64,000 nt of DNA from Nitrospirota bacterium (GTDB lineage Bacteria > Nitrospirota > Thermodesulfovibrionia > Thermodesulfovibrionales > UBA1546), in contig JACQXE010000037.1 of assembly GCA_016208915.1 (NCBI GenBank), forward strand, positions 4,905 to 68,904, given 5' to 3'. How positions within the stretch are numbered: position 1 is the first letter of the stretch; each line of letters starts with the position of its first letter. Shown in pieces: positions 1,872 to 57,582 of the stretch. Below the pieces are notes generated by a model. The model was not told the DNA's origin. It did not search any database and was given only the letters and a program-made list of their open reading frames with translations. A program made the position numbers and the translations under genes.

Positions 1872-2054
1872 AAGAAAGAAATTACCACTATAACAAATTG
1901 AAAGTCAAGGGAAGCATATACGGCGAAAAACTCAATATATATAAATTTTTGATTTAAAATTGAGTTGTCGATAAGATTTTAGTATGATATTATAAATTTT
2001 AAATTGGTTATGGAAACTGTCTTTGACAGAATGAATATGTAAGAAGGAGGTTTT

Positions 2055-3416
2055 ATGGGGAAAAAGGGAAGAGTTCTTACAATTGTTGCTATTTTTGTGA
2101 TAGCAGGTCTGTTCCTGTCCAATTCAACAGGGATTGCTCAGGCTGAAAAACCAAAAATAGCTCCTCCATGCAAGCAATGCCACCAGCCGAATGAAAAGAT
2201 ATTGCGAGGAACATTCGCAGGTGTTTCACAAAAGGCATGGACGATTCAAATTCAGATCGGTCCTGCAACATGGCTTGTGAAATGGGATGATGACACAGAA
2301 CTCATCGGTGCAGAAGGATTCAGCAAGATTCCAAAGGACAAAGAAATTGCCATAGCGATCGAAGAAAAAAACGGTATGCTCTATGCTAAAAGTTTATCTG
2401 TCAAGCCTCCGGCAAAAGTTCCTGCAGAGAAACTGATGAAGGCTGATGAACTTGCAAAGCTTGTTGAGATGGGCACTGAGAAAGGCAATTTCATGCTTGT
2501 AGATTCAAGGCCTGCATTGAGATATAACGAGAGTTTTATTCCGGGCGCGATTAATATTTATGATGCTGAATTTGATAAGAATATTGATAAGCTTCCAAAA
2601 GAAAAGAGCAAACTGCTCATATTCTATTGTGCAGGAGAGACCTGAAGACTGAGTCCATCCTCTGCCGGTAAGGCGGAGAAACTTGGTTACACCAATGTAA
2701 GAGTCTTTCACGAAGGCATGCCTGTATGGAAAAAGGCCGGCAATATAGTTCTTTCAACGCCACAGAATCTGAAAGAAAGTATTGAGAAGGATATCTCCAT
2801 GGTCCTGATCGATCTTAGGAAGGCGGGCGATGCTAAAAAGGAGCATATAAAGGGCGCTGTTTCAGTTTTGGCAGAAGGCATCAGCAAGGCAAAAGACAAG
2901 TTTCCTGCTGATAAAAAGGCGCCAATAGTTCTCTATGCAGGAGATACGAAATCAGCATTCGATTCATTCAAGAATGTAAGAGGATGGGGGTATACAAACA
3001 CATCTGTTCTTAGCGGTGGAATAGAGGCATGGAAAAATGCGGGAAATCCTGTTGAAGGCGGAGAGCTGAAGACAGACATAGTGTATGTGCCAAAGCCGAG
3101 GCCAGGTGAGATAACGGTTGAGGAATTCAAGAAGATCGCAGAGACACTTCCTTCAGACAAACTCATACTTGACGTGAAAGATGTGGATGAAGCAACAGAA
3201 GGTATGCTTGTAGGCGCGAAGAATATACCTACACAGGATATTCAGGCGAGACTATCCGAGATTCCTAAGGATAAGGAGATAATCGCTTACTGCAACACAG
3301 GCGTGAGGGCTGAGATGGCATATCACATTCTGAAGGATGCAGGATATAAGGCAAGATTTCTTAATGCTAATCTTAAGATTGACAAGAACGGGAAATATGA
3401 AATAAGCAAGGAATAG
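2055..3416 (+). CDS. secreted CxxCH (haem c motif) protein with three rhodanese-like domains; one in-frame TGA at 2643..2645 (candidate selenocysteine, otherwise a disrupted gene)
   Basis: Track ORFs 2055..2645 and 2718..3416 share one frame and are separated only by a single TGA. There is a signal-like N-terminus and a CKQCH motif. The TGA splits rhodanese domain 1 (..LLIFYCAGET-TGA-RLSPSSAGKAEKLGYTNVRVFHEGMPVWKKAG). Domain 3 has a CNTGVR loop. Confidence 0.6.
2655..2686 (+). promoter_or_regulatory. stem-loop just 3' of the in-frame UGA, compatible with a bacterial SECIS element
   Basis: A 7-bp upper stem 2660-2666/2672-2678 (CUCUGCC/GGCGGAG, one G-U pair) closes a GGUAA loop at 2667-2671. 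The loop begins 21 nt after the UGA. A possible lower stem is 2655-2657/2684-2686. Confidence 0.4.
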
Positions 3417-3433
3417 GCATAGCGAAGACCATT

Positions 3434-3474
3434 AAAAGGGGGATAAGAACTTTGTCTTCATCCCCCTTTTTTTC
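3434..3474. terminator. bidirectional rho-independent terminator between convergent genes
   Basis: AAAAGGGGGAT (3434-3444) pairs with ATCCCCCTTTT (3460-3470). An A-run lies on one side and a T-run (3467-3473) on the other. Confidence 0.5.
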
Positions 3475-4132
3475 AATCCTCTTCAGACGCTGCTGGTTGT
3501 GGGGGCTTTGGGGTTGCAGGGGGTGCAACTGCCTTGAACTGGGGGGGGATATTAACTTTAGGTTGCTGTTGTGAAGGAACCTGAACCGCAGGTCCGGAAG
3601 GTTGATATAACCGCGGCATTGTGGGCATGGGAAGAGGAGTGGTTGTTACAGTTCCCGATTGCCTGAATCTTTGTGGAGGCGTAGTGTTTTTCATTCCTGG
3701 CTTGCTTCCACCGTATATGTCTATCTTAGATATTAGACCATCAGGTGTGTAGTAGAGAGTATAATCGTTTTCTTTTATGAGTGTGAGCAGTCGCCTTATG
3801 CCTTTCTCTATCTCAACATCTTTGAAAGTAGTGCTGATCTTTTTATGATTAACTTCAACAGATATTTCTGCCTGAAATCCGACCTTTTCTGCAATATTGT
3901 CTATCACATCTCCTATTTCTGCATCCAGTAGTTCAACGCTTAACATCCTGTCTTTGACATCTATGTTCATAATCGGCTTGGGCTCTTCGATTTCAGCCTC
4001 AACCTCTTCTACTTCCTCAGGAGTCTGGGCATACAGAGGAGAAAACAGCAGGAGTATGAATGCCGAAGCAAGAAAGACCTTACATGTTAATAAAATCCTT
4101 AAAAATGAAATTGCTGACGACATGTGTCTCAT
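3473..4132 (-). CDS. hypothetical secreted protein with a Pro/Gln-rich C-terminus
   Basis: 219-aa ORF with a hydrophobic signal-like N-terminus (..LLLFSPLYAQTPEE). Its start overlaps the stop of the upstream EF-G-like gene by 4 nt. I recognise no family. Confidence 0.55.
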   Translation of the reverse strand: MRHMSSAISFLRILLTCKVFLASAFILLLFSPLYAQTPEEVEEVEAEIEEPKPIMNIDVKDRMLSVELLDAEIGDVIDNIAEKVGFQAEISVEVNHKKISTTFKDVEIEKGIRRLLTLIKENDYTLYYTPDGLISKIDIYGGSKPGMKNTTPPQRFRQSGTVTTTPLPMPTMPRLYQPSGPAVQVPSQQQPKVNIPPQFKAVAPPATPKPPQPAASEED

Positions 4133-6228
4133 TTCTCTTCTGCCTTCTCCTTCTTATGGGCTGTTCTTTCAGCTATTATCTTCTGTGCATTGTGGCCGGG
4201 AACCTCTTCGTAGTGCGAGAATTCCATCGAGTATAACCCTCTTCCCGATGTAAGGCTGTGAAGCTGATTTGCGTATGTCAGCATCTCAGACATCGGAACC
4301 AAAGCGGTTATTTTCTGATTTCGTGCCTGTGATTCGACTCCTTGCACCTTGCCTCTCTTTGAGTTGAGGTCGCCTATCACTGCGCCGAGCGTCTCATCAG
4401 GCGTGGTCACCTCTGTTTTCATTATGGGCTCAAGGAGTATCGGTTTTGCATCCTCAACCGCCTTTTTAATGGCCATTGAACCTGCGATCTTGAAAGCCAT
4501 TTCAGATGAATCTACTGTATGGTATGAACCATCGTAGAGCGATACCCTTATATCGACCATAGGATATCCCGCAATTATGCCTTCATGCATTGCTTCAACA
4601 ATTCCTTTTTCGACTGCTGGGATGTATTGTCTTGGTATAGCTCCTCCCACGATCTTATCCACATACTCAAAGCCTTTGCCTCTTGGCAAGGGTTCTATTG
4701 TTATGTGACAATCTCCATATTGGCCCCTTCCGCCTGACTGTTTTTTGTATCTCCCCTGAGCTTTTGCAGGCGCTTTAATCGTCTCTCTGTATGGGATTTT
4801 CGGCGTCTTCATTACTACCTCAACGCCAAACTTTCTTTTTAATCTTTCGAGAGATACTTCAAGGTGCACCTGTCCCATGCCTGAAAGGATCATCTCTTTT
4901 GTCTCCTCGTCCCTGTGAAATTTGAGAGTTGGGTCTTCCTCAAGGATTCTATGGAGACCTGTACTTACTTTATCTTCATCTCCCTTTGTTTTTGGAGCGA
5001 TTGCATAAGATATTAGAGGCTCGGCAAATTTTGCCTTCTCAAAAACTATCGGATGTGTCTCATCACAGAGAGTGTCGCCTGTATTTGTCTCTTTAAGCTT
5101 TGCGACAACGCCTATCTCTCCGGCACCTATTGTATTTGTAGGTATCTGTTTCTTGCCGAGGAGATAGAATATCTGTCCTATCCTTTCCTTTGAACCGACT
5201 GTTGAATTAAGCACATTTGAGTCGGCTTTCAGACCGCCTGAATAGACCCTGAACAAAGACAGTTTTCCTGCATATGGGTCTGCTATTGTCTTGAATACAT
5301 AGGCGGAAAAAGGCTCCTTTCCGTCTGGTTTTCTCTGCACCTCTGTTCCGTCTTTCGGTTTTTTGCCTTTTATCGGGAAAATCCTTACAAGGTCTAAGGG
5401 AGAAGGCAGACAGAGAATTATAGTATCCAGAAGCTGGGGTATTCCTATATTTTTTGTTGCAGAGCCGCATGCAACCGGGATGAATTTTCTTGAAAGCGAT
5501 CCCTCTTTTATTCCCTTTATGATCTCATCCTGTGTCAGTTCACCGCCTTCGAGATATTTTTCGAGCAGTGAATCTTCTGATTCGGCAATCTTTTCTACGA
5601 GTTTTTTTCTGTATTCCTCTGCCTCGGAAACAAGGTCAGAAGGTATGTCTGATTCGGATGCCTTGCCTCCTGAAAATTTATATGCCTTCATATTCAGAAG
5701 GTTTACAATTCCCTCAAAATTTTCGCCTGCGCCTATCGGTATCTGCAAAGGAACTCCCTCTGCTCCAAATGATTTGCTGAGTTCTTCAAGCGCATTGACG
5801 AAATTAGCTGATTCTTTATCCATCTTGTTAATAAAGACTATTCTCGGTATTTCATATTCGCAGGCGTATTTCCAGACTTTCTCTGTTTCAGCCTTAACGC
5901 CGGATATGGCGCTTACTATCACAACTGCGCCGTCAACTGCCTTGAGACTCCCCCTTGTATCTTCGACAAAGTTTATAAATCCCGGAGTGTCTATAAGATT
6001 TAAGCGATAACCATTCCAATTGCAGAAAGCAAGGGCTGAAATAATGGTTATCTTTCTTGATATTTCCTCGGGTTCAGAATCTGTTGTAGTATTTCCCTCT
6101 TCAATGCTGCCAAGCCTGTCGATCGAGCCTGAATCAAAAAGCATAGCTTCAACCAGCGATGTCTTTCCCGCGCCTCCATGCGCAATAACAGCAACATTGC
6201 GAATCTTGTTAACATCAAAATTAGACAT
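4129..6228 (-). CDS. elongation factor G family GTPase (EF-G paralog; not in an str-operon context)
   Basis: 699 aa. G1 motif AHGGAGKTS, DTPGFINF, and full EF-G domain-like length and sequence. Confidence 0.9.
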   Translation of the reverse strand: MSNFDVNKIRNVAVIAHGGAGKTSLVEAMLFDSGSIDRLGSIEEGNTTTDSEPEEISRKITIISALAFCNWNGYRLNLIDTPGFINFVEDTRGSLKAVDGAVVIVSAISGVKAETEKVWKYACEYEIPRIVFINKMDKESANFVNALEELSKSFGAEGVPLQIPIGAGENFEGIVNLLNMKAYKFSGGKASESDIPSDLVSEAEEYRKKLVEKIAESEDSLLEKYLEGGELTQDEIIKGIKEGSLSRKFIPVACGSATKNIGIPQLLDTIILCLPSPLDLVRIFPIKGKKPKDGTEVQRKPDGKEPFSAYVFKTIADPYAGKLSLFRVYSGGLKADSNVLNSTVGSKERIGQIFYLLGKKQIPTNTIGAGEIGVVAKLKETNTGDTLCDETHPIVFEKAKFAEPLISYAIAPKTKGDEDKVSTGLHRILEEDPTLKFHRDEETKEMILSGMGQVHLEVSLERLKRKFGVEVVMKTPKIPYRETIKAPAKAQGRYKKQSGGRGQYGDCHITIEPLPRGKGFEYVDKIVGGAIPRQYIPAVEKGIVEAMHEGIIAGYPMVDIRVSLYDGSYHTVDSSEMAFKIAGSMAIKKAVEDAKPILLEPIMKTEVTTPDETLGAVIGDLNSKRGKVQGVESQARNQKITALVPMSEMLTYANQLHSLTSGRGLYSMEFSHYEEVPGHNAQKIIAERTAHKKEKAEEK

Positions 6229-28217: not shown

Positions 28218-29369
28218 CTACAGTCCTGCCTCTTTCTTCAGTTTTTCTGCTTTATCTGTTTTTTCCCATGTGAAATCAGAATCGGTTCTTCCAAAATGGC
28301 CGTATGCAGCGGTCTTTTTGAAAATAGGCCTTCTCAGGTTAAGGGTTTCGATCATGCCTTTGGGGGTCAGATTGAAATTGTTCCTGATAACTTTGACAAT
28401 TTTGTCATTTTCGACCTTTCCACTGCCAAAGGTGTCAACAAGTATTGAGACAGGCTCTGGAACGCCTATGGCATAAGCTATCTGAACCTCTACTTTGTCT
28501 GCTATGCCTGCAGCCACAATATTTTTGGCAATATATCTTGACATATATGCGCCTGAACGGTCTACCTTCGTAGGATCTTTGCCTGAGAAGCAACCTCCGC
28601 CGTGGCTACCGACGCCGCCATAGCTGTCAACTATTATCTTTCTCCCTGTAAGACCTGTGTCTCCCATGGGACCGCCTACTACAAATCTTCCTGTAGGGTT
28701 TATGTAATATTTTACATTCTCTTCGTCAATTAGTTCCGGCGGCACAACAGGTTTGATGACCTTCTCTATAATGTCCTCTTTCAGCTCTTTGAGCGTTATA
28801 TCAGGGCTGTGCTGGGAAGATATCACAATAGTATCAACCCTGTGAGGTATCCCGTTTTTATATTCTATCGTAACCTGTGTCTTGCCGTCAGGCCGCAGAT
28901 AGCCGAGGATATCTTTTTTACGCACCTCGGACAACCGCATTGCCAGCTTATGCGCCAGCATTATCGGCATTGGCATAAGTTCAGGCGTTTCATTGCATCC
29001 AAAACCGAACATAAGTCCCTGATCTGCTGCACCTCCCGGATCTACACCCATGGCAATATCAGATGACTGCTCATGGATGGAGGTTATCACGGCGCAGGTC
29101 TCATAGTCAAAACCGTATTTTGCCCTTGTATAGCCTATCTCTTTAATAGTCTCTCTGACGATTGATGGTATCTCGACATAACAGTTTGTTGTTATCTCGC
29201 CGGCCACGAATGCAAGACCGGTTGTCACTAGGGTCTCACAGGCAACCCTCGCCGAAGAATCCTTTCCTATTATAGAATCAAGAATGGCATCTGATATCTG
29301 GTCGGCTATCTTGTCAGGATGCCCCTCTGTCACAGACTCTGACGTAAAAAAATAGTTTCCTCTTGACAT
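28218..29369 (-). CDS. metK: S-adenosylmethionine synthase
   Basis: [24 protein letters not shown]...[17 protein letters not shown]. Confidence 0.95.
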
Positions 29370-29493
29370 GTTTAAACCTCCAAATGATTTTGAGATTTAA
29401 ATTATATAACAATTTGGCAGAAAAATAGAAGTGGATTATTCGAATCTATTGGAGATGCTATTTTATGTTTCTGCAAAAAATCGTTTTTTTGTC

Positions 29494-31587
29494 TTAAGTG
29501 TTAATAGTTGTGGACTCCAGCCGTGAGAACTCTGCGATTAATGATGCGACAGCCCAGACCTCTTTAAGAAGATAAAGCCTGTTTAATCTGACCTCTTCTT
29601 GTTTGTCCATAACGAGCACATTGTCAAAGAAATTGTTTATCGGATCAGTCAGGGAAGAGAGTTCCATGAGCGCATCATGATATCTGCATTCTTTCAGCAG
29701 GGCTTTGATGCCTTTTTCTGCTGAAGCAAGTTTTTCATGGAGTCTTTTCTCAGGTTCAGTTGTAAGAAAGCTGACTTTAAGGGCAGGAAGCGCGGTTTCA
29801 GGGAGAATATTTTTCACCCTTTTGATAGCAGTAAGGAAAGAATTATAATTTTCGAGGTTTTTAAATTCTTTGATGGCGTCGAACCTTTGTCTAATCTCTT
29901 TTAATGGTATTTGCGCTGAGAGCGGCAGCAGCGACTGGATTACGTCAAGGCTGTATCCCTGCGATAAGAACATAGGCTCAAGCCTTTGCTCAAAGAACCT
30001 GAGAACTGACGTCTTCAGAGTATCAGGCATCTTTACAGTCTTGAGGCTTAGAGCGTTGTTTATGAGCTCGTTCAATGATATTTCATAGCCTTTCTGCATG
30101 AGCATGGATATAACTGCGAGTGTCTGCCTCCTTAATGCAAAAGGGTCTTCTGAACCTGTTGGAATGAGTCCTATAGAAAAGAATGAAACAATGTTGTCTA
30201 TCTTATCAGCAATGCTCAGAATCATCCCGGCCTCTGTTTGAGGGAGCCTGTCACCCTGATGAGCAGGAAGGTACTGCTCAAGAAGGGCATCTGATACCTC
30301 TCTGTCTTCTGAATCGTTTATTGCATAATATTTGGCCATGATTCCCTGCAGCTCAGGGAATTCCCTTACCACGCCTGTGATAAGATCTGTCTTCAAAAGC
30401 ATTGCCGCACGTTCGACCTTTTCTCTCACAGATGGATTCAGCTCTGAAGCAAGATATCCTGCAAGGCTTTTAACCCTCAGGCTTTTGTCATAAAGATTGC
30501 CGAGTTTTTCCTGATAGATTACATTTTTAAGTGCGCTGATTCTGTTTTCGAGCCTGATTTTTGTATCCTCTTCAAAATAGAATCTTGCATCCTCAAATCT
30601 GGCTTTAATAACGCGTTCTGCTCCAATTTTTATGGTTTCTGCATTCTTTTCATTTGTATTGCTTATTACAATGAAATAGTTCATAAGCCTGCGATCCTGA
30701 TCTTCAACAGCAAAATATTTCTGATGCTCCCGCATGACAGTTATAAGTAGTTCTTTGGGCAGCTTGAGATATTCAGCGGGAAAACTCCCGAGCACAGGAG
30801 CAGGATACTCGACAAGGTTCGATACGGTTTCAAGCAGTTTTTCGTCCTCCACAGGCCGGCCTCCTAAGGATTCGGAAAGTTTTCTCGTCTCCTCGGATAT
30901 GATTTTTTTTCTTTCTTCAGGATCAACTATTACATTGTTGTTTGAAAGCAAGCGCGCATAGCTTGAGACCTCTTTTATCTGAAAAGAGGCTGGAGACAAG
31001 AACCTGTGTCCTCTTGTAGTATTGCTGCTTTTGATGCCATCAATCTCAAAGCTTATTACCTTATTGTCGAATAAGGCAAACAACCAGCGGATCGGTCGTA
31101 TGAATTTTATATTACTGGCGCCCCATCTCATTGATTTTGGAAGATGGATAGAGGAGATGATTTTTTTGAATATCTCGGGAAGAAGTTCGATTACATGCAT
31201 CCCTTTTTCTTCTATTACTGCAACGACATATTCCCCTTTGTCCTTATTTTTTACAATAAGACTCTCTGCCTTTACTCCCTGTGAATTGGCAAATCCGATG
31301 GCTGCCTTTGTGTGTCTGCCGTTTTCATCAAATGCTATCTTTTTAGATGGACCAAATACCTCTCTTATTCTGTCCTCCTGCATTAAGGGTATACCCTCTG
31401 CAATCAGTGCAAGCCTGCGCGGAGTGCCGTATGTTTTTACATTAGAAAATTTTATGTAGGTCTCATTAAAAATAGCTTTGCTGTTTTCCTTTAGTTGATT
31501 GAGAGCAGATGGCAAGAATCTCGCAGGGATATCCTCTGTTCCTATCTCTAACAGCATTGCAACAGGCGCTGCGTTATCGTTTGACAT
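29494..31587 (-). CDS. glyS: glycine--tRNA ligase beta subunit
   Basis: 697 aa. LLEIGTEDIPARF...YGTPRRLA is the canonical GlyS N-terminus. Confidence 0.92.
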   Translation of the reverse strand: MSNDNAAPVAMLLEIGTEDIPARFLPSALNQLKENSKAIFNETYIKFSNVKTYGTPRRLALIAEGIPLMQEDRIREVFGPSKKIAFDENGRHTKAAIGFANSQGVKAESLIVKNKDKGEYVVAVIEEKGMHVIELLPEIFKKIISSIHLPKSMRWGASNIKFIRPIRWLFALFDNKVISFEIDGIKSSNTTRGHRFLSPASFQIKEVSSYARLLSNNNVIVDPEERKKIISEETRKLSESLGGRPVEDEKLLETVSNLVEYPAPVLGSFPAEYLKLPKELLITVMREHQKYFAVEDQDRRLMNYFIVISNTNEKNAETIKIGAERVIKARFEDARFYFEEDTKIRLENRISALKNVIYQEKLGNLYDKSLRVKSLAGYLASELNPSVREKVERAAMLLKTDLITGVVREFPELQGIMAKYYAINDSEDREVSDALLEQYLPAHQGDRLPQTEAGMILSIADKIDNIVSFFSIGLIPTGSEDPFALRRQTLAVISMLMQKGYEISLNELINNALSLKTVKMPDTLKTSVLRFFEQRLEPMFLSQGYSLDVIQSLLPLSAQIPLKEIRQRFDAIKEFKNLENYNSFLTAIKRVKNILPETALPALKVSFLTTEPEKRLHEKLASAEKGIKALLKECRYHDALMELSSLTDPINNFFDNVLVMDKQEEVRLNRLYLLKEVWAVASLIAEFSRLESTTINT

Positions 31588-31697
31588 TCGTATTACCTCT
31601 CAGAAATCGAATAAATCTTCATATGCATTATAACTTTATGCAGCTTTGATTGACAAGAGAATAGCGGTTTGTTAGCATTTTTACTGGAGGAAAGGCA

Positions 31698-32132
31698 ATG
31701 AAGAATATCTTTAGCTGGCAGGTTTTATTAGGGTTATTGCTGATTGCGCTCTCTTCAATATTATATCTGATACATTATGCGCTCTTCAGAGATGCGCACC
31801 ACATATTTCTTTATCTGGTAGGGGATATAGCCTTTATTCCTATTGAGGTGCTGCTGGTTACACTGGTTATCCACAGGCTCTTAAATGAGAGAGAAAAGCA
31901 GGCTATGCTTAAGAAGATGAATATGGTTATAGGCGCCTTTTTCAGTGAGATCGGCAACACTCTCCTTAAATCCCTTTCTGTCTTTGATACACAGCCTGAC
32001 AATATCAGGAAAGAACTGATTTTAAGCAATCAATGGACTGACAAGGACTTCATGAATATCAGCAGGCGTATTAAGGGTTACAACTGCAGTCTTGACAGCA
32101 GGAGAGGCGCTCTCGAAGACTTAGGGATTTAA
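31698..32132 (+). CDS. membrane protein fragment (its stop codon is supplied by the RAYT-element inverted repeat; probably truncated)
   Basis: 144 aa with two N-terminal TM helices. The TAA at 32130-32132 lies inside the left 21-bp inverted repeat. Confidence 0.4.
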   Translation: MKNIFSWQVLLGLLLIALSSILYLIHYALFRDAHHIFLYLVGDIAFIPIEVLLVTLVIHRLLNEREKQAMLKKMNMVIGAFFSEIGNTLLKSLSVFDTQPDNIRKELILSNQWTDKDFMNISRRIKGYNCSLDSRRGALEDLGI

Positions 32133-32883
32133 ATAGGGACACATCCCATTATTACCCTGCTTTCTTCCTGGGTCTGCCCCGTGGTCTCAGCGCTAAGTCC
32201 CTTCCGGTTTTTCTTTCCATCCTTTTCATGAACGCTTCATCTCCAAGCGGTTTGCCTGTCCTCGTATGATAGCGTATCAAGTCCCTGTCTTTCTCTGCGC
32301 TCGTTTCTCTGATAAACTCCCTGTAATCCTTTCTCTGTGTTTCTGCAATAAGCTCCTCGTTTAAAAGGTCGTCTGGTTTCCCCATTATATGAGCCCGCGC
32401 ACTTGAGTATGCGTAGTCTTCTGCTTTTTTCACCATCCGGGCACGTACAGGGTTCGTCTCTATGTATCTTGCAACTGCCCAGAGATAGGAATCCTTATCC
32501 ACAATGCAGGAATGGTACCTGCTCTCCCATAATCTTCCTGTGCGGCTATATTTTCTGTTTGTAAATTGTGTGTAGCAAAGCGTAACTCCCTGCATCATTT
32601 TGTACAGGGAATCGTTTTCTTTGGGCTTAATCAGCAGATGCACATGGTTTGACATCAGACAATAGGCCAGTATCCGGGCATCTCTTTCCATGGAATATTT
32701 TTTCTTATGTTTAATATATTTTTCCCGGTCTTCATCGTCACTGAATACCTTTTCTCTGTTGTTTCCCCTCTGCACTACATGATGTGGAAAACCGGCTGCA
32801 ACGGCCCGTGCGATTCTTGCCATGTCGAAATTCTACCGGAGAGAGGCGGGCTTGTCAAGTAAAATAGGATGTGTCCCTATTTA
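32130..32883. mobile_element. RAYT-type transposase unit bounded by 21-bp inverted repeats
   Basis: taaatagggacacatcccatt (32130-32150) is the reverse complement of aataggatgtgtccctattta (32863-32883) at 20 of 21 positions. The repeats flank ORF 32152..32823. Confidence 0.8.
32152..32823 (-). CDS. REP-associated tyrosine transposase (RAYT) / IS200-like Y1 HUH transposase family
   Basis: PHHVVQRGNNRE..., HUH motif LMSNHVHLLIKP, and ARYIETNPVRARMV (catalytic Tyr region). Confidence 0.85.
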   Translation of the reverse strand: MARIARAVAAGFPHHVVQRGNNREKVFSDDEDREKYIKHKKKYSMERDARILAYCLMSNHVHLLIKPKENDSLYKMMQGVTLCYTQFTNRKYSRTGRLWESRYHSCIVDKDSYLWAVARYIETNPVRARMVKKAEDYAYSSARAHIMGKPDDLLNEELIAETQRKDYREFIRETSAEKDRDLIRYHTRTGKPLGDEAFMKRMERKTGRDLALRPRGRPRKKAG

Positions 32884-32908
32884 TTTATTCATTTATTTAT
32901 TTATTTAT

Positions 32909-33553
32909 CTGTCGCGTGAGGAGGTCAACGCTGTTATTCAGAACCTCTATCCGCCCTATGACCTGTTCGTGAAGACGCTCTACGGCTGCAGGCTGCGGTT
33001 GTTCGAGTGCTTGAAATTGCGGGTCCATAATTTCAACTTCGATGCCGGCGTGCTGACCATTCACGACGGTAAGGGGAAGAAAGATCGGACCGTCCCTCTG
33101 CCGAAGGTCATCATTCCGGAACTCCTTGCTCAGCTTGAGCGGGTGAAGACGCTGCATGAGAAGGACCTGTCCGTAGGATTTTCAGGCGTCTTTCTGTACC
33201 ATCTGCTCGAAAAGAAGTACAAGAACGCTGCAAAGGATCTAGTGTGGCAGTGGTTCTTCGCGCAAAAGTCGTTGACTATCGTGGAAGATACGAAGGAGCG
33301 ACGGCGTTATCATCTCAACGAGCGTGATGTCCAGAGGGCCATACGGGCAGCAGTGGGAAGGGCAAAGCTCACGAAGCGCGTCTCGTCCCACACCTTCCGC
33401 CACAGCTTTGCTACGCACCTGCTTCAGGCAAATTACGACATCCGCACGATTCAGGAACTGCTCGGGCATTCGGACGTGAGGACGATCATGATATACACTC
33501 ACTGTGTGCCGAGCAGAACTCTCAAAGAGATGAAGAGCCCGCTGGATTTTTGA
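32909..33553 (+). pseudogene. intI: integron integrase (IntI) lacking roughly its N-terminal 100 residues
   Basis: LSREEVNAVI...LYGCRLRLFECLKLRV...DGKGKKDRTVPLP...LLEKKYKNAAKDLVWQWFFAQKSL...RRRYHLNERDVQRAIRAAV...HTFRHSFATHLL...LGHSDVRTIMIYTH. It has the IntI-specific insertion and the R-K-HxxR-H-Y catalytic residues. The N-terminal domain is replaced by RAYT IR/(TTTA)n sequence. Confidence 0.8.
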
Positions 33554-33613
33554 AACTGCGAGATTGCTTCGCTTCGCTCTCAATGACACCCCAAAAAGAC
33601 TTTTTCAGGGGTC

Positions 33614-34489
33614 TCAATTTGAAGTCTTCAATAGCGGGAACTCCATTTCTTTTCTCTGTCTGTAATACGCCTCTGCGCAGAGCCGTGCAAGGTTTCTTAC
33701 CCTTCCGATATAGCCTGTTCTCTCTGTTGCTGAAATAGCGCCTCTCGCGTCAAGAAGGTTGAATGTGTGAGAGCACTTGAGACAGAATTCATACGATGGC
33801 AGTACAAGCCCAAGCTCATTCAGTCTTTTGGATTCTTTTTCGTAAGACTCAAACTGTGTTACAAGAAGGGCTGTGTCTGCATGATCAAAATTATATTTGG
33901 AAAATTCCACTTCATCCATGTGGTGGATGTCGCCATATTTGATCCCCTTGCACCACTCAAGCTGAAATACATTGTCCACATCCTGAATATACATGGCTAT
34001 CCTTTCAAGTCCGTATGTTATCTCAAGAGAAACAGGCTTGAGGTCAATACCTCCGACCTGCTGGAAATATGTGAACTGTGTTATCTCCATGCCGTCAAGC
34101 CATATCTCCCATCCAAGCCCCCACGCTCCGAGCGTTGGTGATTCCCAATCATCCTCAACAAAACGTATATCATGCTTTAAGGGGTCTATACCGAGATATA
34201 TAAGGCTTTCAAGGTATATCTCCTGAGTTTCAGCAGGGGAGGGTTTTAAGATTACCTGGTACTGATAGTAGTGCTGAAGTCTGTTAGGATTCTCGCCATA
34301 TCTTCCGTCTGTGGGCCTTCTCGAAGGTTCTACATATGCGGTTTTCCACGGCTCCGGGCCAAGCACTTTGAAAAAAGTAGCAGGATGAAATGTGCCTGCG
34401 CCAACTTCAATGTCATAAGGCTGAAGCAGAATACATCCCTGTTTTGCCCAGAATTCATGAAGCTTTAATATAAGATCCTGAAAGTACAT
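33614..34489 (-). CDS. glyQ: glycine--tRNA ligase alpha subunit
   Basis: [39 protein letters not shown] is the canonical GlyQ sequence. Confidence 0.95.
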
Positions 34490-34585
34490 ATAGGTGGTTG
34501 ATTATACCAGACGATAAAACAAATCGTCAAAAAGTTGTAATGAATCTCGCTGCTCCTATTCCCATTGGATTTTAAGCCTAAAAAA

Positions 34586-36712
34586 TCACTTAGGGATACG
34601 GTTAAATAACTGCTGTGCCTGGATATAGTCGGGTTTTATCAGTAATGCCCTCTGTATCTCCTTGCGCGCGTTATCAAAATCACTTTTCACAAAATAAATG
34701 CACCCAATATTATAATGCGCATCTGCATAATCAGGTTTTAGCCTAAGCGCGGTCTGATATTGTTCCATGGCTTTATCAAATAAACCCTTATTGTAATAAG
34801 CAACTCCTAAGTTATTATATGCCGCTGCAAAATCATGATTGAATTTTATGGCAGCCTGATAATGCTCTACTGCCTTATCGGTTAACCCCATAGAATCATA
34901 AACATCGCCGAGATTATAATGCGCATCTGCATAATCAGGTTTTAGCCTAAGCGCGGTCTGATATTGTTCCATGGCTTTGTCAAATAAACCCTTATTGTAA
35001 TAAGCAACTCCTAAGTTATTATATGCCGCTGTAAAATCCGGTTTTAGTCTGAGAACAGTCAGGTATTGTTCTATGGCTTTATTAAACAAACCCCTCTTGT
35101 TGTATGCAATTCCTATGTTATAATGTGCATCCGCATAATTTGGGTTTAGTTGTATGGCAATATTATAATGTTCTATGGCTTCTTCAGTTAATTCCTTATC
35201 ATCATAGAGATAGGCAAGATTGTTGTGTGCCCTTGCCTTATTCGGACTTTTTATTATCACATCCTCCCATAAGGTCATCTCGTCTCTCCATAAATTATTT
35301 CTTCTATAAGTAGCAGATGAGAGCACAATGAATAAGAAGACAAGCAATGAAATGGCTATCCTTATGGACCAGCTATTCCTGAATTTGTTTGAGAGCATAA
35401 ACATAGAAGCTGTTACGGTAATAAACGCTCCTACCGAAGGAAGGTAGACCCTATGCTCAAATATCACATCCCTTATGGGGATTATACTTGATTCAACAGA
35501 CAATGTTATAAAGAACCATAGAATGCCAAAGGCAATGAGACGATAATAGGCATAAGAAGGCTTAATGCCCATGGCAGAAGACTCTGAAACGTCAACTCTG
35601 AACCGTGAGCTGTACAAAAGATATAGACCTAAAGCAAATATTGATAACAAAAACAAAAAGGAAGATAGCACTAACGGTGTAAATAGTGAATGATATATCG
35701 GATAGGCATAATCAAGGTTCTGATTCACTGGCAGGAATATAAGTCTTATGTATGTTGCTATTACCCTCATCTGGGTTATCAGATAATCCCATCGTGAGAT
35801 ACTTGTGGTCTCCCTTGCCTGCTCGCTTAGATCAGAGATTATCTCCCCTAATGGTTTGTCTGTGCCCATAATGCTTAGTGGAATGATTGCTATAGTCAGG
35901 AGAACGGGTATGAGAAAAAGGAGTTTTTTCGTAAGTGTGGATTTAAAGAATACAAACTCATAAAGAACTATAACTATTGGCAGTGTGAAGGATATCTCCT
36001 TTGTCATCATGGCAAGAATGGCGGAGACAAGCGAGAGAGCATAGCCTGCAAGCTTGCCTGCTTGCGAGCTTGAAAGTCTTCCCTTTATATACAGAACGAC
36101 TGAAAGTAGGTAAAACATCGTCGTAAGGGAGGTGAACCTCTGGACAATATATGTCACTGCCTGTGTCTGTATGGGATGGGCAACAAAAAAGAGTGCAGAG
36201 AACAGGGCGATGAGAGGGCTTAAGGTATAAGGTGTGAGGCGCAAGACCTCTGAATCCTGTATTCTGTATTCTAACTTCTGTCTTCTGAAATACGGCGTCC
36301 AGAATGTAAAGATAACAAGAAAATAGACCAGTATTGCATTGGTTATATGAATAACAAGGTTCACTATGTGATAGCCTGTTACATCAAGCCCTCCAATATG
36401 ATAGTTTAAAGCAAAGGTGAGGTAACCAATAAAACGGCGTGGATTGTATCCATAGCCCTTAGAGGCTGAAATGAAGTTGTCAAGATTTTTTATTATGGAA
36501 TTGTCCTTTATGTTGTTTAAGTCATCAAATATAAATGGCACTTTGAATGTGTTGGAATAGGCAGCAATCCCAATGAGTACTATAAAAATAATATGAAGAA
36601 TCAGCTTTGTAATAGGCTGTGGGATGGCAGACTCGGTTTGCAATAAGCCACCTTCAGAGGCTACGCTAACATCATCATCTTTTTGTTTCTTTTTTCTTGA
36701 AGCCTTTCCCAT
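34586..36712 (-). CDS. polytopic membrane protein with C-terminal TPR repeats (PMT/ArnT-like glycosyltransferase architecture)
   Basis: 708 aa. About 10 TM segments are followed by repeated TPR units (AHYNLG.., AAYNNLGVAYYNKGLFDKAMEQY..). Confidence 0.7.
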   Translation of the reverse strand: MGKASRKKKQKDDDVSVASEGGLLQTESAIPQPITKLILHIIFIVLIGIAAYSNTFKVPFIFDDLNNIKDNSIIKNLDNFISASKGYGYNPRRFIGYLTFALNYHIGGLDVTGYHIVNLVIHITNAILVYFLVIFTFWTPYFRRQKLEYRIQDSEVLRLTPYTLSPLIALFSALFFVAHPIQTQAVTYIVQRFTSLTTMFYLLSVVLYIKGRLSSSQAGKLAGYALSLVSAILAMMTKEISFTLPIVIVLYEFVFFKSTLTKKLLFLIPVLLTIAIIPLSIMGTDKPLGEIISDLSEQARETTSISRWDYLITQMRVIATYIRLIFLPVNQNLDYAYPIYHSLFTPLVLSSFLFLLSIFALGLYLLYSSRFRVDVSESSAMGIKPSYAYYRLIAFGILWFFITLSVESSIIPIRDVIFEHRVYLPSVGAFITVTASMFMLSNKFRNSWSIRIAISLLVFLFIVLSSATYRRNNLWRDEMTLWEDVIIKSPNKARAHNNLAYLYDDKELTEEAIEHYNIAIQLNPNYADAHYNIGIAYNKRGLFNKAIEQYLTVLRLKPDFTAAYNNLGVAYYNKGLFDKAMEQYQTALRLKPDYADAHYNLGDVYDSMGLTDKAVEHYQAAIKFNHDFAAAYNNLGVAYYNKGLFDKAMEQYQTALRLKPDYADAHYNIGCIYFVKSDFDNARKEIQRALLIKPDYIQAQQLFNRIPK

Positions 36713-54499: not shown

Positions 54500-54718
54500 G
54501 AAAGTAATTTGCATTACGCTATAATTTTTTCCTCAAACATAAAGGACTGTTACAGATTATCCATCACAGCCGCAAGTTTCAACTGGTTTTTGAAAGGGGT
54601 TTGGTATATGAAATTGACTTCCTTTCTCAGAAAACCATCAGCATCTTCACTGCAGGTTACACCTGCAAGTCAACAGAGTCGGCAAGATGGAAAAAGTGAT
54701 GATTTTTGAGTGAAATAT

Positions 54719-54806
54719 GAATAACACTGTCATCAGCCGCACGGGGCAACCAGCATGATACAAAAACAACCGGGCTTATCCCGTGTCGGCTGGATCTTGT
54801 TAAAAG
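54719..54806 (-). other. attC-like recombination site A (3' end of cassette 3)
   Basis: The minus strand reads CTTTTAAC-AAG-ATCCAGCCGACACGGG...CCCCGTGCGGCTGAT-GACAGT-GTTATTC. The arms pair with two unpaired bases (C, A) on the 5' arm. Confidence 0.7.
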
Positions 54807-55372
54807 TCACGTTTACTTCCGACAACTTCGACGGATACTCTATTCAAAAAATCACAATAAAATCTCAAGGCAAGTTCTGCTATTACTCTCGGCTCAGCTT
54901 TTCCTTTACGCTTTAGATGCTCAATATTTTTTCCCATATGACTGATAGGAGGATTATAAACCACGCCTCGATTCTTCACAGGCAATAATGGGCGATCCCA
55001 CTTTTGCCAGGTAAATTCAACTTTATCGCCTTTTTGCTCGGCCTCGAACTTTGGTTCCCAATCTTTGACCAAGTCTGAAATACTATGCTCATCAACATTC
55101 CGAGCTTGTTGCAAGTAGCTTAAAAGAGGGTCTTTCCTTCGCAACCTTACGACTTCTGCCTCGATTTTTTGCCAATTAGGCATATTATGGACGGCGGCTT
55201 GAGTTTTTATCCAGACCCTTTCAATTCGATGAAGAAACTCTGTCCATGCTTTTTCATACTCAATAAAATCACCGACGCCAATTGCTACCATTCTCCGATA
55301 CGCTTGATCAGCAAGAGAAAATTCCTTAGCAGCATATCTTAGTGCGTGATTCTGTAGCAATTCGAGCGTCAT
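54800..55372 (-). CDS. hypothetical protein (190 aa), cassette-borne
   Basis: The ORF is bounded by attC-like sites B and A. Its stop codon lies inside the inner R-box (C TTT TAA C). A GGAG motif lies upstream of the ATG. I recognise no family. Confidence 0.6.
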   Translation of the reverse strand: MTLELLQNHALRYAAKEFSLADQAYRRMVAIGVGDFIEYEKAWTEFLHRIERVWIKTQAAVHNMPNWQKIEAEVVRLRRKDPLLSYLQQARNVDEHSISDLVKDWEPKFEAEQKGDKVEFTWQKWDRPLLPVKNRGVVYNPPISHMGKNIEHLKRKGKAEPRVIAELALRFYCDFLNRVSVEVVGSKRDF

Positions 55373-55391
55373 ACTTATTTATCTCCAATGA

Positions 55392-55485
55392 CTTCTAACG
55401 GCTTAAATAACCCGCCGGGGCAACCAGCCTTTGCAAAAAAACCGCAGAGGCTATTCCCGGTCGGGCTGGATGCTTTTGTTACACC
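55392..55485 (-). other. attC-like recombination site B (3' end of cassette 2)
   Basis: The minus strand reads GGTGTAAC-AAAAGC-ATCCAGCCCGACCGGG...CCCCGGCGGGTTAT-TTAAGCC-GTTAGAAG. Confidence 0.7.
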
Positions 55486-56443
55486 GTTTTTTCTTTATTG
55501 TTTGTGCTGTATATTCGCTTTGGGGCTCATGCACTGCGGGGAAAGCGTCCATCCATGATAAATCTCTACCGATTACTAATTCTTCCATGGTTGCATGATG
55601 TGTGTTATTCATCGGTACTAGGCGCATTTCAAAACGATGGTTTCGGGCCATTTTTTTAACTTCTTCTGCATTATCATACGTCATTAAGAAATTGCCCTTC
55701 AATGTCTCACACAGAGCAAACAAGTGCTCATGATCAAGGTCATAATGTTTATATAAACGTTTGCCGGCTTTTTTTCCGCCAGCAGTATATGGAGGGTCTA
55801 TAAAGTAAATAGTATCATGTCTGTCAGCGAATTCCTGAATTACTTTCAAGCCATCATAACGACGGAAGTCGATTCTATCAGCAATGTTATTTAGATTTAG
55901 AATTCGTTTAGCTATAGTTGTAGGATACCAGCGGGAATGAATGCCTTTCCCATTCTCGCCGTATTTGAGAAACCCTGAACCTTCGGCAAGAATGCCACCA
56001 TGAAATGTTCGATTCTTAAGAATTGTCTGAAATGCCTTTTCTTTTTGTGTGTGCGGCAGTCTTTTGATTTCAGTTATGACTGCTTCTCTGGATAGTTGAA
56101 AAGTAAGGATGCGGTTCGCCAGCCATTCAGCGTCGCCATTGATTACGGATTTCCATACTGCTGCAATTTCGTCGTCAAGTTCAACCATAACTGCCTTTTG
56201 AACTAAATTTTCAAAAAGAGCGGTCAAGCTAATAATCCCGCCTCCCGCAAAAGGTTCAACAAGTATTCTTGGCTTTGGAAACATGGTAGTAGTCCAATGT
56301 CTGAATGTAGGTACAAACCATGTCTTGCCTCCGGGATAACGAAAAGGGCTCCGTTGAGGAACAGAAGCCACGTTCACCGGCTTAAGTCTTTCTATTATTT
56401 CGGGTAAGTCAGGGAATAGGAGAGATTGGCTGTGCGTAGTCAT
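55451..56443 (-). CDS. Dam-family (D12 class) N6-adenine DNA methyltransferase
   Basis: FRYPGGK..., motif IV FIDPPY. Start chosen at MTTHSQ (56443), 1 nt after the REase stop. The last 11 codons are encoded by attC-like site B. Confidence 0.85.
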   Translation of the reverse strand: MTTHSQSLLFPDLPEIIERLKPVNVASVPQRSPFRYPGGKTWFVPTFRHWTTTMFPKPRILVEPFAGGGIISLTALFENLVQKAVMVELDDEIAAVWKSVINGDAEWLANRILTFQLSREAVITEIKRLPHTQKEKAFQTILKNRTFHGGILAEGSGFLKYGENGKGIHSRWYPTTIAKRILNLNNIADRIDFRRYDGLKVIQEFADRHDTIYFIDPPYTAGGKKAGKRLYKHYDLDHEHLFALCETLKGNFLMTYDNAEEVKKMARNHRFEMRLVPMNNTHHATMEELVIGRDLSWMDAFPAVHEPQSEYTAQTIKKKRCNKSIQPDRE

Positions 56444-56444
56444 T

Positions 56445-57311
56445 TCAGAATGGTTTCCCAATGGTCTTATTAATCGGCGGAGTCTCAATCTGATCGTCGA
56501 GTTTTTCCTGAAGTAGCTTGATAAAATCTTCAACTTTCCCAGGTGATGCCGTAGTTATTGAAAGAAGAGCAGGCTCAAACTCGGTGAAGACTTCGTCCAC
56601 CTTCTTCAGTGAATATTTTCCCGCCTCATGCCCTTTTTCTTCAATCAGTTCCAAGTCGTAAATCAGCCATGCGATATCTGCTTTGGCCTTAGAGACTTTC
56701 TTTAGTTTTGGCAGAGTAGCAAAAAAACTCTTATTCAATGCAACGGCGATTTTCTTTTGCCAACTGTGCAGGATTCCACCCTTGAAAAGAAGCTGAGGCG
56801 CAAGTCTTTTGCGAGAAGATGACAGGTAATCAGGGCGCGGATAATTGGGCTCTTTAGTCCAATCCATTGATGCCCGGTCTTTTGGGTCCTTCATAAAGTA
56901 TGCAAATGGGTCACGCACATTCCCGGAAATATATACCGCCTGAACTTCCAGCGCACCGAAATCATAAATTTTTCCTTTGTCGTCGTAAGCAACAAGCACA
57001 ACATCAATATTTCCAGCAGACTTCCCTTGTGAGTCATTTAAACGAACTTCCGTCAATGAACTCCAGTTCGCGTCTTTTTGAAAAAAGAAGGAAGCGGCGT
57101 CATCAGTAATAAGCCAGTCTTCACGAAATCTAATAGGGCAGGTTATGACCGGATGATTTTCATGATAAATACTGCAAACGCCGAGAGGGTCTTTCGCCTT
57201 ATCTTTCGTGCAATTCGGTACTTTGTTGTTAAAAGGGCACAAGCGATGTGAGCGGTATCTATTAGCCTTTTCTGTATCGTCAGTTGTCAAATGGCCGAAT
57301 ACTTCCGCCAA
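56445..57311 (-). CDS. type II restriction endonuclease, NotI-like family (TTG start)
   Basis: N-terminal FGH..CPF...CTK...GVC...CPIRF Cys cluster, ALEVQAV, and an overall resemblance to NotI as I recall it. It lies adjacent to the methyltransferase. Confidence 0.6.
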   Translation of the reverse strand: MAEVFGHLTTDDTEKANRYRSHRLCPFNNKVPNCTKDKAKDPLGVCSIYHENHPVITCPIRFREDWLITDDAASFFFQKDANWSSLTEVRLNDSQGKSAGNIDVVLVAYDDKGKIYDFGALEVQAVYISGNVRDPFAYFMKDPKDRASMDWTKEPNYPRPDYLSSSRKRLAPQLLFKGGILHSWQKKIAVALNKSFFATLPKLKKVSKAKADIAWLIYDLELIEEKGHEAGKYSLKKVDEVFTEFEPALLSITTASPGKVEDFIKLLQEKLDDQIETPPINKTIGKPF

Positions 57312-57480
57312 TGGTTATCCTACGTTTGCCATAAATGCCTTTCTTTTAAAATCAAATATTTAATGCCTTGTCTTGTAAAGATTATAACGGAATCCAATAC
57401 GATTTTGCACCCCGCCTGGCGGATGGACATTCAGTGTAGTGTTTCAATGGTTTTCGGTTTTATGTCGTTATTTATATTGT

Positions 57481-57577
57481 GGTGTAACGCTGGGCATGAG
57501 CCGACCGGGCCACTCGCGCCTGAAATGAAAACTAAACCAGCTTTAATCCCGGTCGGGCTCGATGCCATTGTTATAAG
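57481..57577 (-). other. attC-like recombination site C (3' end of cassette 1)
   Basis: The minus strand reads CTTATAAC-AATGGC-ATCGAGCCCGACCGGG...CCCGGTCGGCTCAT-GCCCAGC-GTTACACC. The arms are perfect apart from two unpaired C residues. Confidence 0.75.
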
Positions 57578-57582
57578 TTTTT

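Follow-up and report, generated by a model that had tools for sequence, protein, structure and literature searches.

Introduction

In Xanthomonas, chromosomal integrons are located downstream of ilvD, where most of the integrase genes (intI) are inactive owing to frameshifts, stop codons or extensive deletions, and other attC clusters are found elsewhere (PMC12444791). A survey with IntegronFinder detected intI pseudogenes near 15 of 279 attC clusters, and it has been proposed that attC clusters without an integrase (CALINs) originate from intI loss and genome rearrangements, consistent with the insertion sequence (IS) elements found in a fourth of complete integrons (PMC4889954). Here, we describe the gap between glyQ and glyS, the genes for the two subunits of glycine--tRNA ligase, in a 64-kb stretch (hereafter the window) of a metagenome-assembled genome of Nitrospirota (GCA_016208915.1, contig JACQXE010000037.1). 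The gap contains the 3' remnant of an integron integrase gene (intI'), a small transposase unit termed REP-RAYT-REP, and the 5' part of a native gene (ORF3'). We consider it probable that a chromosomal integron just downstream of glyQ decayed and left this gap as a mosaic, with deletions at the RAYT unit.

RAYTs are REP-associated tyrosine transposases of the IS200/IS605 Y1 HUH superfamily. RAYT/REP systems have reportedly been treated by Nunvar (2010), Bertels and Rainey (2011) and Ton-Hoang (2012). The unit described here resembles them in that a Y1 HUH gene lies between inverted short REP-like palindromes, and extra REPs cluster near one of its relatives (L083). In contrast to them, the unit with its REPs and promoter behaves as a small mobile module found in five different contexts, and only two copies of the REP core motif are present in the window, the flanking pair (0.08 expected by chance). 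The protein scores 79.0 bits on the NCBIfam model REP_Tyr_transpos, where the cut-off is 80.

The locus shares several traits with the ilvD-linked integrons (PMC12444791). The integrase gene lies directly downstream of a conserved housekeeping gene, related genomes hold different cassette arrays at this place, intI appears inactivated by a large deletion, and a CALIN is found elsewhere in the genome. It differs in its host, a member of the Thermodesulfovibrionales, in glyQ as the anchor gene, in the lack of any retrieved relative with an intact intI, in an intI' that looks recently imported, and in the loss of attI and cassettes. As in the IntegronFinder survey (PMC4889954), a cluster of three attC sites without integrase occurs together with an intI pseudogene with matches to PF00589 and to the C-terminal region specific to IntI, but the pseudogene lies 21 kb from the cluster, compared to a limit of 10 kb, and the disrupting element is a REP-RAYT-REP unit instead of a classical IS. 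The IS1111-attC group and group IIC-attC introns (cited in PMC12444791) are insertion elements that damage integrons and target attC sites specifically. These are likewise mobile elements that sit inside an integron platform and disrupt it, whereas the unit at glyQ gives no sign of att-site targeting and most RAYT relatives lie outside integrons.

The integrase remnant

Both synthetase genes are intact and lie on the minus strand with 2026 bp between them (Table 1); hence, glyQ is not immediately followed by glyS. A sequence-only reading of this DNA had placed the two genes on the same strand about 2 kb apart, and had described, on the opposite strand of the gap, an IntI catalytic domain with the IntI-specific segment and all catalytic residues, which lacked about the first 100 residues in favour of a RAYT inverted repeat and a tetranucleotide tract. 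Our analysis agrees with this description in each respect. The plus-strand open reading frame (ORF) at 32822-33553 (243 aa) matches TIGR02249 in one stretch from profile position 101 to 313 of 315, with 259.5 bits. This is below the cut-off of 265 because positions 1-100 are missing, while the full-length relatives P0003 and P0006 reach 374 and 390 bits. The gene is cut off just where the RAYT unit and the microsatellite joining it to the stump are located.

In contrast to the single stretch of TIGR02249, the XerC and XerD models match the ORF in two separate stretches, as is expected where the IntI-specific extra segment intervenes. This segment between patches II and III is kept (KYKNAAKDLVWQWFFAQKSL..RRRYHLNE, also KYKNAAKDLVWQWFF...RRRYHLNE) and conserved with IntI relatives. 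The aligned patch and the undivided match identify the fragment as a genuine IntI and not as a XerC/D-like recombinase. Moreover, the catalytic R, K, H-x-x-R, H and Y are all present in the alignment (R59, K in GKGKK, HTFRH, GHSD and IYTH), and PF00589 is matched with 117 bits.

Homology to full-length relatives begins at LSREEV, nucleotide 32909. Identity to these relatives is 86% over the 243-aa ORF and 93% in the BLASTP local alignment. At the DNA level, two full-length metagenomic intI genes (L173 and L174) are 92.2% identical over exactly 32910-33553; their contigs are only 1.2-1.3 kb long, and the sequence past their intI stop codon is unrelated to the glyQ terminator. The (TATT)n tract next to the homologous part is absent from the other copies of the RAYT unit.

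The loss amounts to 107 canonical residues, or to about 205 in the case of a long ancestor, since many of the closest IntI relatives (401-426 aa) have, ahead of the canonical IntI start, a conserved additional N-terminal block and a variable linker. This block, FC.KY..PD.SS.SLPQFL.KL.EKKQT..Q.KQAGHAVSLYLDL, was noted in P0005-P0009, P0014, P0017, P0021 and P0037. The search for the missing 5' part and for an attI, which the sequence-only reading had suggested, was carried out: IntI N-terminal coding sequence was found nowhere in the 64-kb window, and no attI was found in or near the gap. Within the 214 homologous codons there is no frameshift or stop codon. Two window-specific replacements affect residues that are invariant in the 119 closest homologues: G57R lies two positions ahead of the catalytic Arg, and T222I three positions ahead of the catalytic Tyr. 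Since only these two replacements fall on invariant residues and frameshifts are absent, the data fit a fairly recent inactivation.

NCBI annotates the 243-aa ORF as a tyrosine recombinase, and it might be expressed and work as an N-terminally truncated enzyme with a new start in the RAYT leader. Starting from an ATG at 32822, the frame stays open across REP and (TATT)n tract into intI', the catalytic residues are kept, and the branch leading to intI' shows no excess of replacements. On the other side, residues 1-29 are a translation of REP and microsatellite, no plus-strand promoter was predicted upstream of the ORF in our promoter scan, the two replacements hit invariant residues, and there is no att site nearby. 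Tyrosine recombinases have an N-terminal core-binding domain, and this SAM-like domain is missing here. We regard a functional product as extremely unlikely.

The REP-RAYT-REP unit and its junctions

The two arms of the unit form a 21-nt inverted repeat (95% complementary) with the REP motif AATAGGGACACATCC. All close RAYT relatives have retained an arm past the stop codon, and the motif is conserved at both ends in those whose contigs reach both. The HVH and YIETNPV motifs of the transposase could be read directly from the sequence, while an exact-protein look-up returned no record. We found the unit in four other contigs (L003, L092, L091 and L090) with 93-96% nucleotide identity, the same ends and unrelated flanks. 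Homology starts at CAGGGACACATCC upstream of the promoter and ends at GGGATGTGTCCCTATTTA past the stop codon. The L003 copy is followed by an attI-like segment, a toxin-antitoxin cassette, a TPR gene and glyS, and the L092 copy by a ParE toxin-antitoxin pair and a TPR gene at the contig end. The copies in L091 and L090 are preceded by a TPR/NosD gene and by a sigma-54 activator gene, respectively. The REP-promoter-gene-REP layout is also found in further contexts, in relatives whose protein is 85% identical. In L083 (6592-8690), a RAYT relative (86% identical) lies by a second Y1_Tnp gene and PIN-toxin genes, with five extra REP copies within 1.4 kb upstream.

Because synonymous codon changes outnumber replacements against the four near-identical copies (for example, 16 versus 11 between the window and L092), the RAYT gene is taken to be under purifying selection, and presumably it is active. 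In L003, the 77 C-terminal residues are identical to those of the window at 95.7% DNA identity. The hosts are far more distant: GlyS of the window is 67% identical to that of the two hosts that allow a comparison, L003 among them, and L092 was assigned to the group of L003-L006 by its TPR fragment. Since the unit is 93-96% identical at the nucleotide level while GlyS is only 67% identical, the unit has evidently passed between hosts in recent times.

Both neighbours of the unit are truncated and point in the same direction. ORF3' lacks its 3' end, with its stop codon falling within the REP arm, and intI' lacks its 5' end. Because genes are truncated on both sides, we read this as the signature of one or two deletions that ended at the unit, and not of a simple insertion.

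The unit is repeat-like and horizontally shared, and the source is a metagenome-assembled genome, which would allow for an assembly chimera joined at the repeated RAYT/REP sequence. We examined Logan assemblies of three runs (L175-L177), which cover 29003-32833 (from glyS through ORF3' and the REP into RAYT) with 99.6-99.9% identity. From two of those runs, L002 covers 32804-34738 (RAYT start, intI' and glyQ) with 100% identity, and L001 covers intI' and glyQ from 32913. The assemblies L175-L177 and L002 overlap by 30 nt. Both junctions of the unit are independently supported by assemblies that span them with 99.6-100% identity; the chimera was rejected, and its probability is in our view close to negligible.

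A probable integron site downstream of glyQ

In the window, the glyQ flank is homologous to that of the related contig L006 up to GCAGTTT, which directly abuts the stop codon of intI'. In L006, a 75-nt segment starts 11 nt after the shared GCAGTTT and is 97% identical to L003:265-339. The identity between the two ends exactly at ...AACATTGTT, after which L003 continues with AGGTTT... and a toxin-antitoxin cassette, and L006 with GTGTGT... and a different gene. A shared segment which ends at a GTT core and is followed by different genes looks like an attI-cassette junction.

L006 carries four cassettes at 1187-5713. Their genes are one of 342 aa, a DUF4365 gene, and one for an N6/N4 methylase that is accompanied by a 164-aa partner. 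Between or after these genes lie imperfect palindromes with ..AAC / GTT... at their borders, at 2366-2435 (weak), 3417-3514 and 5569-5636. The last of them was recognized by sequence reading and fold; it is homologous, together with the DNA beyond, to the cassette end of L003. For scoring we used a covariance model made from four sites (MAFFT alignment, eight consensus pairs), which is essentially a sequence profile of one attC type. Its training sites, one of which is L006:3417-3514, score 82-103 bits, whereas the non-training sites L006:2366-2435 and L003:915-980 are weak (E = 0.08) and not significant (E = 3.4), respectively.

In L003 and L092, the RAYT unit lies beside toxin-antitoxin cassettes in the same orientation as in the window, and the RAYT gene has cassette orientation in all three. 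Given the convergence of intI' on glyQ, the lost 5' end, attI and cassettes would point to glyS, which is the geometry seen in L006 and L003. Overall, the comparison with relatives supports an integron site on the 3' side of glyQ in these genomes, and the window would retain only the integrase stump of it. The sequence-only reading had proposed a former integron platform that was inserted and then decapitated by the RAYT unit. As far as a platform at this junction (L006, L003 and L092) and a truncation at the RAYT unit are concerned, this holds; the part according to which the insertion split an adjacent glyQ-glyS pair does not.

No two genomes of the genus-level group (84-89% nucleotide identity) have the same interval between glyQ and the TPR gene. 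It holds four defence-like cassettes in L006 (1187-5713), RAYT with an Unstab_antitox/ParE pair in L003 (232-980), RAYT with a different ParE pair in L092 (843-1650) and nothing in L005. The last three glyQ codons are also missing in L005, which looks like a secondary deletion.

A resident integron is one explanation of intI'; the other is that the lineage of the window never had one, and that the intI fragment was imported alone or with RAYT, in place of the TPR gene and of the 3' portion of the native gene whose remainder is ORF3'. Several observations favour such an import or speak against the reading of a resident integron. The GC content of intI' is 0.53-0.55, compared to about 0.36-0.47 in the flanking genes, and copies with 92% DNA identity lie in different flanks (L173 and L174); together, these point to a recent horizontal arrival and not to an old resident. 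The RAYT unit itself was evidently passed recently between distant hosts, and its relatives are mostly found in non-integron contexts. A complete integron, with attI and at least one attC beside intI, is not present at glyQ; the nearest attC lies at 54.8 kb. With filters off, no attC-like match was found in 31000-34600, although the model describes one attC type and divergent sites could escape it. No match to the attI-like segment of the relatives was obtained in or near the gap, which leaves the locus without attI or cassette. A relative with an intact intI at the junction was not found either: L006 has no intI, L005 has nothing at the spot, and the contigs of L003 and L092 end too soon (the 109 nt upstream of the L092 unit have no IntI coding potential). 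Among the matches listed, none of the 80 loci of metagenomic IntI relatives (up to 73% identity) lies beside glyQ, glyS or RAYT. Finally, the branch-specific changes of intI' (18 synonymous to 5 replacement codons) do not differ from those of intact relatives and reveal no clear relaxation.

Other properties of the locus speak against the import of a fragment. The intI stop codon is exactly where the foreign segment ends, and this end abuts the very flank on which attI and cassettes follow 11 nt later in L006. Its orientation is that of a classical integron, with intI converging on glyQ and cassettes towards glyS, and at the equivalent locus in L003 and L092 the RAYT unit lies beside cassettes. 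Moreover, RAYT units elsewhere are unlinked to intI, so that a joint block of RAYT and intI' is not a recurrent module. We consider an import without any resident integron unlikely. At minimum, the composition and identity of intI' indicate that the integrase gene at the glyQ site was recently replaced or acquired.

Native DNA next to glyS and the age of the split

About a quarter of the gap, its leftmost part (31588-32132), is native DNA. ORF3' is 58-61% identical to residues 1-142 of a 247-aa ORF in L005 (7134-7877) and its homolog in L006 (6915-7724), both of which are divergent to glyS. Pfam annotates it as MJ1433_N/MJ1433_C, and the last 105 codons of the native gene are gone. By homology, ORF3' is a 3'-truncated native gene and not cargo of the insert, a point that was overlooked in the sequence-only reading. 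In L003 (2289-2507) and L004 (2394-2599) the 247-aa gene is almost wholly lost, and remnants of both its ends match L005 and L006. Because it was lost there while the glyS promoter was kept, the gene is regarded as dispensable and repeatedly eroded.

It had been suggested that glyS must now use a new promoter within the insert. We found instead a TTGTCA-N18-TATAAT promoter in the native DNA, both hexamers of which are identical in five genomes (the window, L003, L004, L005 and L006). Since the hexamers are common to the window and its four relatives, glyS is predicted to run from its own native promoter, and no promoter in the insert would be needed.

L005 and L006 are the closest relatives retrieved (GlyS 66-67% and GlyQ 88.9-89.7% identical to the window); a GlyQ-based search for closer host relatives returned none nearer than 88%. 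In these two genomes glyQ and glyS are 2119 bp and 6883 bp apart, with two opposite-strand genes between them, a TPR gene (391-397 aa) and the 247-aa gene. Of 76 related loci that could be evaluated, 38 have a distance of less than 150 bp, 4 one of 150-600 bp and another 4 one of more than 600 bp. The remaining 30 have no glyQ in the available upstream flank, which is at least 5 kb long in 20 of them. In L178, which is about as distant from the window as L005 and L006 (GlyQ 88%, GlyS 69.5% identical), glyQ and glyS directly abut, while they are unlinked in L179 (GlyQ 86%; judged by GlyQ alone).

These distances bear on the original proposal that glyQ and glyS were adjacent and co-transcribed, that an integron inserted between them and was decapitated by RAYT, and that glyS was left with a new promoter in the insert. 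The adjacency in L178 and in 38 of the 76 loci suggests that adjacency is probably the deep ancestral state, and intI' and RAYT are indeed foreign to the locus. Adjacency is nevertheless the rule in only half of the evaluable loci. L178 has the adjacent pair, whereas L005 and L006 show in part what the sequence-only reading itself had named as evidence to the contrary, a split with other genes in between; in these closest relatives, 2.1 and 6.9 kb lie between the two genes. Roughly a quarter of the gap is native DNA and includes the 5' portion of one of the genes that separate glyQ and glyS there, and the glyS promoter is common to L003-L006 and lies outside the insert. Because the ORF3' gene and the promoter are shared by the window and its relatives, the split would be old. 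The integron hence appears not to have split the pair, and the separation to be older than the present arrangement of intI' and RAYT; the original proposal is very unlikely.

Proposed history of the locus

We infer the following order of events, including the role of the RAYT unit as the cause of the deletions, within the reading of the gap as the probable product of integron decay. In an ancestor shared with L003-L006, glyQ and glyS would already have been apart, separated by the oppositely oriented TPR and 247-aa genes, and glyS would have had its own promoter. An integron would have been resident, or would have arrived, between the glyQ terminator and the TPR gene, with intI converging on glyQ and the cassettes towards glyS. 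The REP-RAYT-REP unit would then have landed beside intI/attI, followed by one or two deletions ending at both REP ends. These would have removed the first 107 canonical intI codons (about 205 in the case of the long form) and the intI promoter, together with attI and whatever cassettes were present; the TPR gene would have been lost as well, and the 247-aa gene shortened by its last 105 codons. At present, glyQ, glyS and RAYT would be working, the latter two from their own promoters, while intI' and ORF3' would be dead stumps.

A more specific role of the RAYT unit can be envisaged. It may be an autonomous element that is recently spreading among distant Nitrospirota, that prefers integron platforms, perhaps through a REP-like sequence by attI in L003 and L006, and that generates flanking deletions. 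We think this is rather doubtful. If true, the unit would represent a hitherto overlooked cause of integron inactivation, and RAYTs could no longer be viewed without exception as immobile, domesticated genes. A literature search for an association of RAYTs with integrons gave nothing relevant.

The distant attC array and neighbouring features

The sequence-only reading had also reported an attC array at 54.7-57.9 kb, for which it considered the degenerate intI a plausible historical source. The array is real and consists of three attC-like sites spanning 54.7-57.6 kb, with no intI within a few kb, and we classify it as a CALIN. The covariance model gives its sites 82-90 bits, but these are the model's own training sites; no further attC site was found with it in the window, given that it covers one attC type. 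Of the cassettes, one encodes a membrane protein of 116 aa, another a NotI-family restriction enzyme along with a Dam-like methylase, and the third a protein of 190 aa. The cluster adjoins gcvH/lpdA.

The attC type of the array (CATCCAGCCGAC.GGG ... CCCC.GCGGCTGATG ... GTTA) is the same as that of the glyQ-linked array in L006. Because the type is common to both, one integrase of this lineage could have handled both arrays. IntI also acts in trans. The array does not simply continue the intI' platform, since it lies 21 kb from intI' and its cassettes read towards intI' and not away from it.

Following the glyQ terminator, a short repeat, GTCATTG(C/A)GAG...GAAGCAATCTC, is present in the window (33556-33590) and in L006 (1150-1186). 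In L033 (3860-3935; Desulfobacterales) an inverted pair of it occurs, likewise between glyQ and glyS, where the gap contains cspA and a SurA-like gene. The element resembles a small dispersed repeat of wide distribution. Upstream of glyQ lies a TPR gene (34586-36712, minus strand), in which L001, assembled independently from the same population, appears to lack one 204-nt repeat unit (34709-35038), as judged from overlapping BLAST coordinates only. This could be a copy-number polymorphism or a repeat collapse.

Table 1. Features of the glyQ-glyS gap, the flanking genes and the distant attC array (coordinates in the window).
Feature	Position	Strand	Basis
glyS, glycine--tRNA ligase beta subunit, intact	29494-31587	-	TIGR00211, 803.8 bits; Pfam tRNA_synt_2f, DALR_1
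Divergent promoter region, 110 bp	31588-31697		between glyS and ORF3'
Native glyS promoter, TTGTCA-N18-TATAAT	31627-31656	-	promoter scan, 11/12 consensus matches
Promoter-like site for ORF3', TTGACA-N17-TAGCAT	31650-31678	+	promoter scan, consensus match only
ORF3', 144-aa ORF; 5' 142 codons of 247-codon native membrane-protein gene (MJ1433-like)	31698-32132	+	relatives, Pfam
REP-RAYT-REP unit, self-contained, about 752 nt	32131-32882	-	same ends in four other contexts
REP-like hairpin / inverted-repeat arm, RAYT 3' side	32130-32150		inverted repeat, hairpin fold
RAYT-type Y1 (HUH) transposase gene, 223 aa, intact	32152-32823	-	Pfam Y1_Tnp (PF01797), 66.3 bits
RAYT promoter, TTGACA-N17-TAGAAT	32830-32858	-	promoter scan, 11/12; conserved in all close RAYT relatives
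REP-like hairpin / inverted-repeat arm, RAYT 5' side	32863-32883		fold z = -3.5
(TATT)7.8 microsatellite joining REP to intI stump, 31 nt	32878-32908		TRF score 55, 92% matches
intI', 3' remnant of integron integrase gene; catalytic domain, 214 codons + stop, no own start or N-terminal domain	32909-33553	+	TIGR02249
Native 3' flank of glyQ, 60 bp; terminator-like hairpin and short widespread repeat	33554-33613	-	homology to L006, hairpin fold
glyQ, glycine--tRNA ligase alpha subunit, intact	33614-34489	-	TIGR00388, 505.5 bits
CALIN, attC cluster without integrase, three cassettes	54716-57578	-	sequence reading, bulged-base hairpins, covariance model
attC sites	57478-57578, 55390-55486, 54716-54807	-	..AAC / GTT... 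(R''/R') cores, bulged stems
NotI-family endonuclease (complete restriction-modification pair with the methylase in one cassette)	56445-57311		Pfam NotI
Dam-like methylase	55451-56533		TIGR00571 dam

Conclusions

Taken together, we regard the locus as a case of the ordinary decay of a chromosomal integron, of a known kind and, by analogy, comparable to the decayed ilvD-linked integrons of Xanthomonas. For annotation, this would mean that the public 243-aa 'tyrosine recombinase' is a dead stump and that the adjoining 144-aa ORF is half a gene, while the expression of glyS would be independent of the foreign DNA. In Thermodesulfovibrionales-like Nitrospirota, the 3' side of glyQ appears to be a variable site: some genomes have cassettes there along with an attI-like site, others a RAYT unit or an intI remnant, or else nothing. 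It would add an environmental example from a different phylum to the in-place integron decay of the Xanthomonas type. The only mildly unusual aspect is the discrete RAYT unit that is shared across distant genomes, and this may give a modest lead on the mobility of RAYTs.

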